Below, piece after piece: positions 24,405-27,323 of a DNA stretch of 64,000 bases. The notes under the pieces were generated by a model that searched no databases, was not told the DNA's origin, and saw only the letters and a program-made list of their open reading frames with translations. Made by a program: the position numbers and the translations under genes. Source of the DNA: Shigella phage ESh27; the sequence record ON528737. One strand, written 5' to 3'. How positions within the stretch are numbered: position 1 is the stretch's first letter; each line of letters starts with the position of its first letter.

Positions 24405-24691
24405 TTAAATTAACCGCAGTTGTATTATCTATTGGCATTTTGGCTGGATGTGCCCAAGATGTGCCCTTAAGCCCTAAAGAAACTTTACATCCGCAATGGC
24501 CTGAATCTATTGTTGAATATAACCAGAAATGGCAGGTAAAGGTTATTGATGGTAATCCATGGGTTGGAATGCCATTTGAAGACTCTCAAGAATTTCGTAT
24601 CTGGTTAAACGACGTAAAAAGATATGTACATGACCAGAAGACTATGTTATGTTATTATCGTAGTGGTTTAAAAGAGGAAAAATGCCAATGA
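24401..24691 (+). CDS. o-spanin lipoprotein (Rz1-like, pseT.2 equivalent)
   Basis: 96 aa; signal peptide with lipobox ILAGC; immediately after the i-spanin gene. Confidence 0.65.
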   Translation: MIKLTAVVLSIGILAGCAQDVPLSPKETLHPQWPESIVEYNQKWQVKVIDGNPWVGMPFEDSQEFRIWLNDVKRYVHDQKTMLCYYRSGLKEEKCQ

Positions 24692-24906
24692 CTAAAGAAC
24701 AGCATGAATACATTAAAGGGCTTATCTATGAATCTGAAATGGCGGCTATGATTTATGGCCGTCTGATTCAACGATTAGAATCTTTGCCTCCGACTAATGA
24801 CCGCTTGTTAGTTCAGTCTCGTGCTAATCTGAAAAATGAATATCAGAACAAGTGGGCAGTAGCGACTAAAGCTCTTCATGAGTATATCGAATCTTTAGTA
24901 AAATAG
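24682..24906 (+). CDS. hypothetical protein (74 aa)
   Basis: ORF track; in pseT-upstream small-gene run. Confidence 0.45.
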   Translation: MPMTKEQHEYIKGLIYESEMAAMIYGRLIQRLESLPPTNDRLLVQSRANLKNEYQNKWAVATKALHEYIESLVK

Positions 24907-24935
24907 TTTACAAACTCTCGGGAGCAGAGTATAAT
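24906..24935 (+). promoter_or_regulatory. early sigma70-type promoter
   Basis: -35 GTTTAC, 18-nt spacer, -10 TATAAT; GAGGAAA SD downstream. Confidence 0.55.
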
Positions 24936-24963
24936 GCTCCTATGGATAATTGAGGAAATCTAA

Positions 24964-25263
24964 ATGAAAACATTACTAGAGAATTATATCAAACGGTCAG
25001 ATGAGTATATTGATATCTGCCGTGGAATGTCACTTGTCAATTATGATAAAGATGCAGCAAAGGCCATAGATGAAGCAGGTAAAGCTCTTCGTAAAGCTGC
25101 TAAAGAAAAAGGGTTGGATTTGCAACAACTCAAAAGTCATATGATTAAATTTATTTCTTCAAACGTTAGAAGTACGTCAATTAATAAAAACGTTGCTGAA
25201 ATTAATAAAGACCGGCGCGAACATAACATTCGTATTCTTGAAGCTTTCTTAGGAATAAAATAA
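24964..25263 (+). CDS. hypothetical protein (99 aa)
   Basis: ORF track; early promoter at 24906-24935 and GAGGAAA SD. Confidence 0.5.
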   Translation: MKTLLENYIKRSDEYIDICRGMSLVNYDKDAAKAIDEAGKALRKAAKEKGLDLQQLKSHMIKFISSNVRSTSINKNVAEINKDRREHNIRILEAFLGIK

Positions 25264-25454
25264 TGGACCAAGCCAAAATTGATAAGTTAATCCATACGCT
25301 TGTAGCAGATATCAATACACGGGCCCTTCGTAAATCACAGAATGGTGAGTCTTGGACTATGCAAGATTGCAAGAAAGGTGCTGAACTAGGACGTGAAATT
25401 GCTAAAATTCTTAGTGGACAATTTGAATTTGCTGAAGAGGTAGTAAAACTGTGA
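25263..25454 (+). CDS. hypothetical protein (63 aa)
   Basis: ORF track; ATGA-type overlap packing with neighbours. Confidence 0.4.
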
Positions 25455-26350
25455 AAAAGATTATTTTGACTGTAGGTTGTCCGGGGTCTGGTAAAAGCAC
25501 TTGGGCTCGTGAATTTATTGCTAAGAATCCTGGGTTCTTTAATATCAACCGCGACGATTATCGTCAATCCATCATGGGCCACGAAGAACGTGACGAGTAC
25601 AAATACACTAAGAAGAAAGAAAGCATCGTAACTTATATGCAACACGATGCGGCACATATGATTCTCTGTCAAGACGGAACTAAGGGTGTTATTATTTCTG
25701 ACACCAACTTAAATCCTGAACGTCGTCTTGTCTGGGAAGAATATGCTAAGCAGTGGGGCCATGAAATTGTATATCAAGTGTTCGATGTTCCATGGACAGA
25801 ATTGGTTAAACGTAATGCCAGGCGCGGCACAAAGGCCGTTCCTATCGATGTTCTACGTTCGATGTATTCTCGTATGCGTGAATACAAAGGACTTCCGGTT
25901 TATAAAGGAACTCCGGGTAAACCTAAAGCGGTTATCTTCGACCTTGACGGGACTTTAGCTCTACATGTTGCTCGTGGGCCCTATGAGTTGGATAAACTAT
26001 CCACAGATGCCCCGAACCCTATGGTTGTCGAATATGTTAAGATGCTTCATCAGGCTGGGTATACAATTATTACTGTAAGTGGTCGTGAATCTGGAACTAA
26101 AGAAGATTCAATGTGTTATTACGAAGCAACTAAAAAATGGATGGACACGTTTTCTATTCCATGGGAAATGCATATTCAACGTAATCAAGGTGACACTCGT
26201 AAGGACGATGTTGTTAAGGAAGAACTCTTTTGGAACTGTATTGCTCCTTATTACGATGTGAAATTGGCCGTTGATGACCGTAACCAGGTTGTGGAAATGT
26301 GGCGTCGTATTGGTTTAGAATGTTGGCAAGTTAACCATGGCGATTTTTAA
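25451..26350 (+). CDS. pseT: polynucleotide 5'-kinase / 3'-phosphatase
   Basis: 299 aa; P-loop GCPGSGKST, phosphatase DxDGT motif (IFDLDGTLA), C-terminal ..[13 protein letters not shown] as in T4 Pnk. Confidence 0.94.
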
Positions 26351-26541
26351 TGAAACGATTATATGAAGTGATTGAGGCCATCGAACAGCATAAAGAATAT
26401 TTGTTTGTAGCCTGGCCTTTAGTAAATGGACAGTTCGGTATTGATGTGCTGGACTATGAGCATGAAGAACGTTTGGACGGTGGTATATTTGATAACGTCG
26501 ACCAGGCAATTGAATGGTTAAATGAAAATTATGTACGATAA
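26350..26541 (+). CDS. hypothetical protein (63 aa)
   Basis: ORF track; cd.x-like slot. Confidence 0.4.
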   Translation: MKRLYEVIEAIEQHKEYLFVAWPLVNGQFGIDVLDYEHEERLDGGIFDNVDQAIEWLNENYVR

Positions 26542-26746
26542 ACATCATGAAATCGAAGATGAAGCATACAAAATGCTTCGTAAACTAGTAGGACTTAATA
26601 TGAGTTCTACATTAATCAACAAGCTTACCGAAATTCGTAACGACCTGAATACTCGTTACAAAGGCGAATATCATGTAGAGTTTGTTCCTGTAGGCGAACC
26701 GACCGAGCAATTTGTTGTTCGAGTTAAAGTAAATACTGTACACTGA
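26522..26746 (+). CDS. hypothetical protein (74 aa)
   Basis: ORF track; cd.x-like slot. Confidence 0.4.
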   Translation: MKIMYDKHHEIEDEAYKMLRKLVGLNMSSTLINKLTEIRNDLNTRYKGEYHVEFVPVGEPTEQFVVRVKVNTVH

Positions 26747-26753
26747 GGTAATT

Positions 26754-27029
26754 ATGTTCCCTAAATATTCTGAAATTGTAAAGGTCGTTTTTAGTCAGAT
26801 TATCGCAAATCATTTCTTTGATAAGCTGGATACTGCTACCGAGCTTAAGGTCCACTCTGAACTACTCTACGTTTTGAATACACTAGTGCCTGACCAAGTG
26901 GATTCTGTGTCTGTTACGTTGTTGCCCAGCTCGGCTCATGTGATTGTTGTGTTTGGTCTTGATGCTGAACTAGTAATTCAGTGTGAAGTTGATTTCGATT
27001 CACAAGAAATTAAATGTTTTGCAATTTAA
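26754..27029 (+). CDS. hypothetical protein (91 aa)
   Basis: ORF track; cd.x-like slot. Confidence 0.4.
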   Translation: MFPKYSEIVKVVFSQIIANHFFDKLDTATELKVHSELLYVLNTLVPDQVDSVSVTLLPSSAHVIVVFGLDAELVIQCEVDFDSQEIKCFAI

Positions 27030-27059
27030 GTTTACAACACCGTAGAGTTGTGATATGAT
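27030..27059 (+). promoter_or_regulatory. early sigma70-type promoter
   Basis: -35 GTTTAC, 18-nt spacer, -10 TATGAT; GAGGAAA SD downstream. Confidence 0.5.
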
Positions 27060-27086
27060 GACTCTACCAACAATGAGGAAATTGAA

Positions 27087-27323
27087 ATGCTAAGTGAAAA
27101 TCCAATTACAGTACACGAATTTCAGATTAAAGTAAAAGAATTTGCTCAAGCACTCATCAATAAAGTGTCTGAACGTTTCCAGGATGCAACATTACGAGTT
27201 ATTCAAGAATCTCCACGTTCTTTTCTCATAATCGTTAATCCTAAAGATGGTGACCAAATTACTAATCTTAAATTAGGCAGTGATGGTCTTGTTGAAGCAA
27301 CTCGAGTATATGGAACACTATAA
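27087..27323 (+). CDS. hypothetical protein (78 aa)
   Basis: ORF track; early promoter 27030-27059 and GAGGAAA SD upstream. Confidence 0.45.
   Translation: MLSENPITVHEFQIKVKEFAQALINKVSERFQDATLRVIQESPRSFLIIVNPKDGDQITNLKLGSDGLVEATRVYGTL

Follow-up and report, generated by a model that had tools for sequence, protein, structure and literature searches.

What are the small genes that crowd around pseT in T-even phages, and what keeps them there? The question is raised by a stretch of 64,000 nucleotides from Shigella phage ESh27 (sequence record ON528737; hereafter called the window), in which seven open reading frames (ORFs), numbered here o1 to o7 in order of position, surround the gene pseT for polynucleotide kinase/phosphatase. 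All seven are genuine genes of already catalogued, uncharacterised T-even families. The interval is probably a hyperplastic region of a Mosigvirus in which gene shuffling is linked to promoter-early stem-loop (PeSL) cassettes, and its small proteins, dispensable in the laboratory, would bind host factors that vary from strain to strain. Such an arrangement is ordinary T-even architecture, with small early genes of no assigned function clustered in hyperplastic regions between core genes. The points that go beyond existing annotation are a lead on the function of cd.4 (o4), an unsupported label on the o2 family, and a scar of cd.2 beside the gene of a DAHP synthase.

The small genes flanking pseT are genuine

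The window belongs to the genus Mosigvirus (T-even phages resembling RB69 and phAPEC2). A 6-kb query around the interval aligns end to end, at 97–98% identity, with many GenBank phages, among them CCU7, OLB35, phiC120, and the BASEL phage Bas46 ("ChristianSchoenbein"), a relative classed as Mosigvirus; the plus strand of the window has the opposite orientation to the standard T4 map. Synteny was assembled from GenBank records, and a search for related loci in IMG/VR returned seven loci. All record counts given below refer to tblastn searches against 50,697 phage records.

That the seven ORFs are genes and not chance ORFs is confirmed by their PHROG matches, their presence in hundreds of records, their coding-type substitutions, and the RNA and protein reported for the T4 orthologues. 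The three ORFs that precede pseT (listed with 74, 99, and 63 amino acids) and the four that follow it (63, 74, 91, and 78 amino acids) match one PHROG family each, with E values from 1e-33 to 4e-48. Their homologues, found in 241 to 921 phage records per ORF, are syntenic and range down to 30–40% identity. Among four Mosigvirus genomes, most substitutions affect third codon positions, and every ORF has more synonymous than non-synonymous changes (15/6, 24/13, 17/10, 10/8, 21/13, 8/1, and 9/0 for o1 to o7). In T4, PseT.1 and Cd.2 show early RNA and early protein, and Cd.3 and Cd.4 show early RNA and middle protein (Wolfram-Schauerte et al. 2022, PMC9697503 supplement). Two antisense ORFs on the minus strand (25202–25672 and 26315–26548) are by-products. 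The seven families are mutually unrelated (hhalign all-against-all probabilities ≤10%), and paralogy among their members, several of which share a pattern of a helix followed by strands, is rejected at the sequence level.

An earlier note, made from the letters of the window alone, had described seven unassigned ORFs of 63–99 amino acids around pseT, several of them with early promoters of their own and with Shine-Dalgarno sequences of the GAGGAAA type. The sizes are exactly as claimed. The promoters shrink from "several" to two (24907–24935 and 27031–27059), and the ribosome-binding sites hold for o1, o2, and o7, and as GAGG for o6, but not for o3, o4, and o5. Because these three lack a good Shine-Dalgarno sequence and their starts overlap the preceding stop codon, they look translationally coupled to the gene upstream. 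The likely starts of o1 and o5 (24688 and 26531) are those of the RB69 and Bas46 annotation and of the PHROG alignments. The word "unassigned" remains correct for function but not for the families: all seven ORFs are named in the GenBank record of RB69 (AY303349), four are named genes of T4, and two define Pfam DUF families. The note also missed the two PeSL-type cassettes, which are the organising feature of the interval, and the recombination scar beside the DAHP synthase gene.

Promoter cassettes coincide with breakpoints in gene content

The only two intergenic gaps of the interval are filled by the two promoters, GTTTACA-N17-TATAAT (11 of 12 hexamer matches) and GTTTACA-N17-TATGAT (10 of 12), whose 25 upstream nucleotides are 76% and 80% A+T, respectively. 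A generic promoter scan found no enrichment in the region (15 observed versus 18.6 ± 4.2 in shuffles), so the case for the two promoters rests on match quality, position, and conservation. Neither middle promoters with a MotA box nor late promoters of the type TATAAATA were present between 23.4 and 28.5 kb.

In both cassettes, a predicted stem encloses the −10 element. The stem of PeSL-A comprises 7 bp (24920–24926/24935–24941; minimum-energy fold −13.8 kcal/mol, z −1.9), that of PeSL-B 10 bp (27042–27051/27058–27067; −15.1 kcal/mol, z −2.6), and 7 of 11 pairs of the PeSL-B stem show compensatory changes among seven phages. By their anatomy (promoter, A+T-rich upstream sequence, stem over the −10 element, Shine-Dalgarno sequence plus ATG), both appear to be PeSL-type cassettes. 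PeSLs have been presented as combined promoters/terminators and as recombination linkers in the hyperplastic regions of T4-type phages (Arbiol et al. 2010, PMC2839356; Comeau et al. 2014, PMC4122927), and in RB49 and phi1, the ORFs that they flank can excise as mini-circles (PMC2839356). The PeSLs of RB49/phi1, PST/T4, and nt-1/KVP40 share with the window cassettes the succession of promoter, stem-loop, and Shine-Dalgarno sequence, the intergenic position, and the location at breakpoints of hyperplastic regions. By contrast, polyG/polyC tracts are frequent in the PeSLs of RB49, whereas the stems in the window are 7–10 bp long and of mixed sequence.

Both cassettes coincide with breakpoints in gene content between genera. 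Of the first 39 nucleotides of PeSL-A, 37 are identical in JS98-type and IMG/VR T-even loci, in which the genes on either side are different ones; in the JS98 type, pseT.1 is replaced upstream by a tiny hydrophobic ORF, and o2 is replaced downstream by an ORF of 160 amino acids. PeSL-A is not present in T4 or T6. PeSL-B lies between cd.3 and cd.2 in T4, T6, RB69, JS98, and VR26, and it is followed directly by cd.2 in T4 and Mosigvirus, by an ORF of 175 amino acids in T6, and by one of about 180 amino acids in JS98 and VR26. A closely similar element is located between pseT and o5 in Marfavirus and in three metagenomic loci (L018–L020). We infer that PeSL-mediated recombination caused the breakpoints.

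The tiny hydrophobic ORF that stands in the place of pseT.1 in Dhaka- and Gaprivervirus is unannotated, about 35 amino acids long (MIEACIDGWDVFKFGAACFCFGIVFSLCMNGIFGK; JS98, positions 1340–1447 of locus L012; VR26, positions 3849–3955 of locus L013), and may encode a small membrane peptide. It overlaps the stop codon of pseT.2 and ends just before PeSL-A.

Mosaicism among T-even genera

In Tequatro-, Mosig-, Marfa-, and Jiaodavirus, pseT is found together with pseT.1, cd.3, and cd.2. In Winklervirus CHI14, pseT.1 and cd.2 are present and cd.3 was not found by tblastn; in Dhaka- and Gaprivervirus, cd.3 and cd.2 occur without pseT.1. The three genes are treated here as a backbone that is conserved with pseT across several genera of Tevenvirinae and not as variable fringe. 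The families of cd.4 and o2 are limited to T-even genera of Escherichia coli, Shigella, and Yersinia, and o5, which Tequatrovirus lacks, is shared by Mosig-, Dhaka-, Gapriver-, Marfa-, and Gelderlandvirus and by phages of Enterobacter.

In T4, pseT.1, cd.4, cd.3, and cd.2 have the same order and orientation around pseT as in the window, with the same early promoter between cd.3 and cd.2. However, T4 carries cd.5 between pseT and cd.4 and cd.1 in the place of the DAHP synthase gene, and it lacks o2, o3, o5, and the promoter cassette after pseT.1. In RB69, ORF231c, ORF230c, and ORF227c occupy the positions of o2, o3, and o5 (ORF231c is annotated from a later start, with a length of 237 nucleotides), but RB69 has another allele of cd.3 (68% amino acid identity) and neither the DAHP synthase gene nor o8, a short ORF between cd.2 and that gene.

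The earlier note had regarded the small ORFs as accessory genes and the interval from pseT to cd as the most accessory-rich part of the window. Relative to T4, the latter holds: the window contains eight ORFs without a T4 homologue, and four of them lie between 24.9 and 28.4 kb. One of the other four, on the minus strand beside the tail-fibre genes (2746–3525), is presumably an alternative (T2-type) gp38 adhesin. The label "accessory" agrees with the classification of the T4 and Bas37 orthologues as "Non-essential" by transposon insertion sequencing (Tn-seq), but it does not fit pseT.1, cd.3, and cd.2, which belong to the conserved backbone. The seven are not a set of core T4 genes with established roles: T4 lacks three of them, and for none is a function known.

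One case of allelic exchange is that of cd.3. The window is 96–100% identical to RB69 except in cd.3 (window 26780–27087), where nucleotide identity is 54–80%, and the divergence ends in PeSL-B. This pattern suggests a swap of a single gene that ended at the downstream promoter cassette. Only 41 of the 921 records with a cd.3 homologue are at least 90% identical to o6, which is a minority allele of cd.3 within Mosigvirus.

Another case of exchange involves the DAHP synthase gene. The ORF o8 aligns with positions 44–76 of profile PF24005 (E = 1e-6, 28.7 bits), and its sequence ("SYLITIENGHK...VESxSVY") corresponds to the cd.2 allele of a different T4-like lineage (L018–L020); the segment "SYLITIENGHK" is identical to the C-terminus of Cd.2 in L018. 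In L018–L020, as well as in Marfavirus and Winklervirus, cd.2 directly precedes the DAHP synthase gene, and positions 27400–28500 of the window share 75% nucleotide identity over 1.1 kb with positions 4199–5304 of L018. No Shine-Dalgarno sequence precedes o8, and its changes among Mosigviruses are non-synonymous in four cases and synonymous in none. As judged from these alignments, o8 is the 3′ remnant of a foreign cd.2 allele, left as a recombination scar, and is probably not a functional gene. The donor-type piece of cd.2 and the synteny with L018 indicate that the DAHP synthase gene arrived by recombination inside cd.2. Together, the two cassettes, the allele swap of cd.3, and the cd.2 remnant provide a worked example of the trading of accessory genes among T-even phages, and such shuffling matters when Mosigvirus phages are compared or engineered for therapy.

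Searches for function

Scans of o1 to o8 against Pfam, NCBIfam, and PADLOC returned two DUFs and sub-threshold noise (Com_YlbF, COMMD8_HN, the N-terminus of DUF7438, PRK13696, and MoaD). PADLOC, as a library of defence models, gave no match at E ≤0.1 for any of the eight ORFs. Profile searches against PDB sequences with five of the families yielded only chance matches (designed ankyrins, histone H3, and a synthetic protein). Confident AlphaFold2 models were obtained from family alignments of Cd.3 (two helices and a four-stranded antiparallel sheet; predicted local distance difference test [pLDDT] 92.8) and Cd.2 (one long helix and a four-stranded sheet; pLDDT 90.9). Foldseek searches of the PDB returned nothing below E = 0.06 for Cd.3 and a best, non-significant value of E = 0.04 for Cd.2. 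In geometric terms, Cd.2 overlaps best with the E. coli toxin RnlA, in its N-terminal domain (TMq 0.59); at E = 0.23, this resemblance is not significant and is a lead only. In BFVD, Cd.2 matched only uncharacterised DUF7320 proteins, including those of T4-like phages of Aeromonas. The statement of the earlier note that no motif could be assigned thus extends to Pfam, NCBIfam, PADLOC, and PDB profile searches and to Foldseek comparisons of the two confident models. Literature searches on pseT.1, on the names of the RB69 ORFs and of the DUFs, and on the UniProt accessions gave no match, and those on cd.2, cd.3, and cd.4 retrieved only papers on coeliac and Crohn's disease.

The o2 family carries the name "putative homing endonuclease" in BASEL records (MZ501056, MZ501098, MZ501052, and MZ501046) and in the HIDEN-SEQ tables. 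Searches of Pfam and NCBIfam detected no GIY-YIG, HNH, LAGLIDADG, His-Cys box, PD-(D/E)xK, or EDxHD domain in o2 at E ≤0.1, and the sole match, to Com_YlbF, is sub-threshold (E = 0.028). There is also no sporadic distribution of the kind expected of a mobile gene: in the 708 records with a homologue, identity tracks the genus, and the gene lies upstream of pseT in every record examined. A search of 5.8 billion proteins found relatives only in T-even phages, with the "E. coli" entries being phage contigs of about 170 kb. In the absence of both a nuclease domain and a mobile distribution, the assignment is unsupported; the label looks like a propagating annotation error and should be dropped.

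A host-strain-specific requirement for cd.4

Experimental evidence comes from the Tn-seq study HIDEN-SEQ (Humolli et al. 2025, bioRxiv 10.1101/2025.11.20.689424), which is the source of all Tn-seq results below, with the insertion frequencies and fold changes taken from its supplement. T4 pseT.1 and cd.1–cd.5 are "Non-essential" on E. coli K-12, as are the Bas37 genes 0050–0057, which include a member of the o2 family; 88–100% of the TA sites in the T4 and Bas37 orthologues carry insertions. On two uropathogenic strains of E. coli, CFE299 and CFE303, the cd.4 family stands out. With T4, insertions in cd.4 are depleted on CFE299 relative to K-12 (log2 fold change −2.93), together with those in pseT (−5.27), cef (−3.99), and nrdC.1 (−4.80; adjusted p 0 in all cases). 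The values for pseT.1 (−0.15), cd.1 (−0.33), cd.2 (−0.01), cd.3 (−0.30), and cd.5 (+0.06) are not significant; because both cd.5 upstream and cd.3 downstream are neutral, the effect of cd.4 is not polar. With Bas37, gene 0053, which occupies the position of cd.4, is depleted on CFE303 (−5.84, adjusted p 0), and its six neighbors are not (−0.85 to +0.29, not significant); on CFE299, the value for gene 0053 is −2.26 with an adjusted p of 0.31. Insertions in the cd.4 family had no effect on CFT073 or CFE331. The depletion of cd.4 is found in the supplementary resampling tables, and the main text of that study is silent on it. A deletion construct of bas37_0053 was made, and no matching defence was reported. 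The Bas37 gene of the o2 family is non-essential and has no conditional phenotype.

The same screens identified several small T-even ORFs as anti-defence factors: NrdC.1 (anti-Septu), Bas37_0203 (anti-Druantia III), Bas37_0260 (anti-McrBC), and Tk.4/AdfM (anti-DarTG2) (10.1101/2025.11.20.689424). Like cd.4, they are small early genes without known domains that are dispensable on K-12 and depleted on particular hosts, but they have no sequence or known fold relation to cd.4, and the other six ORFs of the interval have no such signature so far. By this analogy, the cd.4 family is a candidate counter-defence factor that acts in a host-strain-specific manner.

Quite possibly, although this is put forward tentatively, o4 is a stoichiometric inhibitor of an anti-phage system of E. 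coli in uropathogenic strains such as CFE303 and CFE299, and possibly a decoy that mimics nucleic acid. T7 Ocr and T4 Arn are acidic DNA mimics; the likeness of o4 to these decoys is one of composition only (small and very acidic), with no homology. An alignment of o4 with its homologues in T4 and in two IMG/VR loci (IMGVR5 and IMGVR8) contains 19 residues that are invariant across four genera, including W22-P23 and D32-V33. The dependence of two phages on cd.4 on two clinical strains offers an experimental handle on the family; if the proposal is true, Cd.4 marks a new anti-defence family common to about 690 sequenced T-even phages.

Origin and role of the interval

The evidence can be accommodated by the following scenario, which we consider probable on the whole. 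A backbone of pseT.1, pseT, cd.3, cd.2, and cd, common to the T4-like phages of enterobacteria, would have gained lineage-specific inserts (o2, o3, cd.4, o5, and the DAHP synthase gene). Early transcription would combine read-through from upstream with initiation at two strong promoters of the sigma-70 type, each wrapped in a stem-loop, and the conserved cassettes of about 60 nucleotides would double as homologous linkers for the exchange, gain, and loss of adjoining small genes. The products would be seven unrelated, small, apparently soluble proteins, all dispensable for lytic growth on laboratory E. coli, and each would be kept for binding and neutralising or retuning a strain-variable host factor, mainly anti-phage defences. 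By analogy, such a binding or counter-defence action is the most likely role of the individual proteins; it is proposed here for all seven, with indirect experimental support for the cd.4 family alone. An anti-defence role is favored because other small T-even ORFs are anti-defence factors and because of the behavior of cd.4.

Several observations weigh against this scenario. The searches of Pfam, NCBIfam, PADLOC, PDB profiles, and Foldseek gave no function for any of the seven, and the other six families show no phenotype in the published Tn-seq conditions examined (10.1101/2025.11.20.689424). The phenotypes of cd.4 are those of T4 and Bas37 orthologues, which are only about 50% identical to o4, and Bas37_0053 is identified as cd.4 by synteny and identical gene length (its positional counterpart in Bas44, a sibling phage, shares 51% identity with o4). 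The defences cloned from the strains in question comprise only Retron VI, two Septu systems, and Druantia III, and none has been matched to cd.4 (10.1101/2025.11.20.689424). Finally, the junction of the DAHP synthase gene lies inside cd.2 and not at a PeSL, so that not all shuffling in the interval is PeSL-mediated.

An alternative role is suggested by the company of pseT. If pseT.1, cd.4, cd.3, and cd.2 were accessories of RNA repair, aiding PseT and RnlA in mending tRNA or RNA cut by host anticodon nucleases, either as specificity or recruitment factors or as inhibitors of the nucleases, it would explain why pseT.1, cd.3, and cd.2 stay beside pseT from T4 to Jiaodavirus and Winklervirus, why T4 needs pseT, the tRNA-related cef, and cd.4 together on CFE299, and why the best (non-significant) structural likeness of Cd.2 is to the N-terminal domain of the E. 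coli endoribonuclease toxin of the name RnlA. However, insertions in pseT.1, cd.2, and cd.3 are neutral on the very strain that requires pseT, and CFE303 requires cd.4 (−5.84) but not pseT (−0.85, not significant) or cef (+0.16). Moreover, PseT occurs in more than 2000 non-T-even phages, including mycobacteriophages and Streptomyces phages, whereas the seven families were not found outside T4-like phages of Gram-negative hosts. An accessory role in RNA repair is considered unlikely. A role in host takeover, with early shut-off proteins whose expression by itself would be toxic (as with Alc, Ndd, or the Mosigvirus peptide Emp), would fit the early expression from strong promoters and the vicinity of alc, and the earlier note had suggested toxicity screening. 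A toxicity screen of 45 early proteins from AV110, a Mosigvirus with the same gene order, indeed revealed six growth inhibitors (10.64898/2026.09.14.751387). These are Gp94, Gp135, Gp204, Gp208, Gp214, and Gp263, and none falls inside the interval, which corresponds to gp47–gp57 when WPK33846 is counted as gp1, a numbering that is supported by the identity of Gp95 as the MotA-like regulator. The AV110 homologues of PseT.1 and Cd.2 were probably among the 45 proteins tested, and the non-essentiality of the genes is neutral in this respect; takeover by toxic proteins is an improbable function of the set.

The possibility that o2, o3, and o5 are selfish passengers, persisting by transfer as cargo of a homing endonuclease or of PeSL mini-circles, could draw on the BASEL label of o2, the differing loci of o3 between genera, the lack of a Tn-seq phenotype, and the excision of mini-circles in RB49 and phi1 (PMC2839356). 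Yet o2 has no nuclease domain, is short for such an enzyme, and keeps a single locus across about 700 genomes, diverging in step with its neighbors. The excess of synonymous changes in o2 (24/13), o3 (17/10), and o5 (21/13) points to constraint on the proteins, and only PeSL-A adjoins o2 and o3, with no second cassette between o3 and pseT that would permit excision; we regard a purely selfish persistence as quite improbable. Still harder to sustain, to the point of being barely credible, is the notion that some of the ORFs are unexpressed products of chance in AT-rich DNA. The ORFs are short, three lack a good Shine-Dalgarno sequence, and equally long antisense ORFs exist, but PHROG matches at E ≤1e-33, hundreds of syntenic homologues, the preponderance of third-position and synonymous changes, the detection of protein from all four T4 orthologues, and confident AlphaFold2 folds for two families all speak for genes, and only o8 behaves as a non-gene.

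Affiliation of individual genes and neighboring features

The coordinates of all features are compiled in Table 1.

Table 1. Genes, promoter cassettes, and further ORFs of the window (aa, amino acids; pI, isoelectric point)
Feature	Coordinates	Strand	Remarks
rnlA	22373–23497	+	followed by alc, pseT.3 (i-spanin), and pseT.2 (o-spanin)
pseT.2	24401–24691	+	o-spanin gene; directly followed by o1
o1	24688–24906	+	pseT.1 orthologue; 72 aa; alternative ATG at 24682 (74 aa); near-neutral
PeSL-A	24907–24963	+	putative cassette; −35 TTTACA 24907–24912; −10 TATAAT 24930–24935; GAGGAAA before o2 start
o2	24964–25263	+	RB69ORF231c family; 99 aa; basic, pI 9.6; sequence pattern suggests helices
o3	25263–25454	+	RB69ORF230c family; 63 aa; TAATG overlap with o2; 3′ end overlaps pseT start
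pseT	25451–26350	+	polynucleotide kinase/phosphatase; GTG start; 74% identity to T4 PseT; 2883 phage records
o4	26350–26541	+	cd.4 orthologue; 63 aa; pI 4.3, net charge about −9; start overlaps pseT stop (TAATG)
o5	26531–26746	+	RB69ORF227c family; 71 aa; upstream ATG at 26522 (74 aa)
o6	26754–27029	+	cd.3 orthologue (DUF7355); 91 aa; acidic, hydrophobic
PeSL-B	27030–27086	+	putative cassette; −35 27031–27036; −10 TATGAT 27054–27059; GAGGAAA; equivalent to T4 early promoter Pe133295
o7	27087–27323	+	cd.2 orthologue (DUF7320); 78 aa
o8	27310–27435	+	41 aa; matches only C-terminal half of DUF7320
DAHP synthase gene	27444–28436	+	between cd.2 and cd relative to RB69; in place of T4 cd.1
cd	28436–29017	+	beyond DAHP synthase gene
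ORF	1271–1558		no homologue in T4 92–166 kb
ORF	2746–3525	−	no homologue in T4 92–166 kb
ORF	30162–30299		no homologue in T4 92–166 kb
ORF	53903–54172		no homologue in T4 92–166 kb

Among the genes upstream of pseT, o1 matches phrog_2347 over its full length (E = 9.7e-37), is 81% identical to T4 PseT.1 (NP_049835), and has homologues in 805 phage records; its sequence pattern predicts a helical protein. Its position directly behind the o-spanin gene is the same in T4, RB69, Jiaodavirus, and Winklervirus; in Mosigvirus, o2 and o3 are interposed between pseT.1 and pseT. The product of o2 (phrog_2364, E = 3.6e-48) is 96% identical to that of RB69 at the syntenic position; T4 has no such gene, and its place in T6, PST, and most other genomes of Tequatro-, Mosig-, Dhaka-, and Gaprivervirus is immediately before pseT. 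The rarest of the seven families is that of o3 (phrog_8683, E = 1.1e-41; 241 records), which is 97% identical to its syntenic RB69 counterpart and at least 95% identical within Mosigvirus. It is located upstream of pseT also in L018–L020; in Jiaodaviruses of Klebsiella, homologues with about 55% identity map elsewhere in the genome, and in some records the matching stretch is annotated with arn (anti-restriction) genes.

Downstream of pseT, o4 (phrog_2360, E = 2e-33; 686 records) shares 52% identity with T4 Cd.4 (NP_049832; E = 1e-22). The neighboring o5 (phrog_3609, E = 6.5e-40; 337 records) is 93% identical to RB69 at the syntenic position; T4 has no counterpart of it and carries the unrelated cd.5 on the opposite flank of cd.4. 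An exhaustive HMMER search of 1.84 billion representatives with o5 produced only four full-length or fragment relatives; a repetitive protein of 316 amino acids in the same search was regarded as noise. The two DUF families are matched over practically their entire length, PF24051 by o6 (residues 1–91 on profile positions 1–93; 116.5 bits versus a cutoff of 27) and PF24005 by o7 (residues 1–77 of 78; 121.5 bits versus a cutoff of 27). Identity to the T4 proteins is 64% for o6 (Cd.3, NP_049831) and 65% for o7 (Cd.2, NP_049830; 793 records).

The orthologue of cd.3 in T6 (locus L011, NC_054907, 5773–6048) bears the RefSeq product name "toxin", the basis of which was not found. In the same record, neighboring genes carry evidently wrong similarity notes, such as a dCMP deaminase described as "similar to major capsid protein".

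The spanin genes pseT.3 and pseT.2 (window 24048–24691) are listed as essential or with a strong fitness defect in the HIDEN-SEQ tables for T4 and Bas37, unlike all small ORFs nearby. Two further PeSL-like elements are present on the plus strand of the window. One, at 22319–22347, precedes rnlA and has a predicted stem of 8 bp between the −35 and −10 elements; the other, at 31130–31157, has a predicted stem of 12 bp over the −10 element (−19.5 kcal/mol, z −3.6) and is conserved in JS98-type loci.

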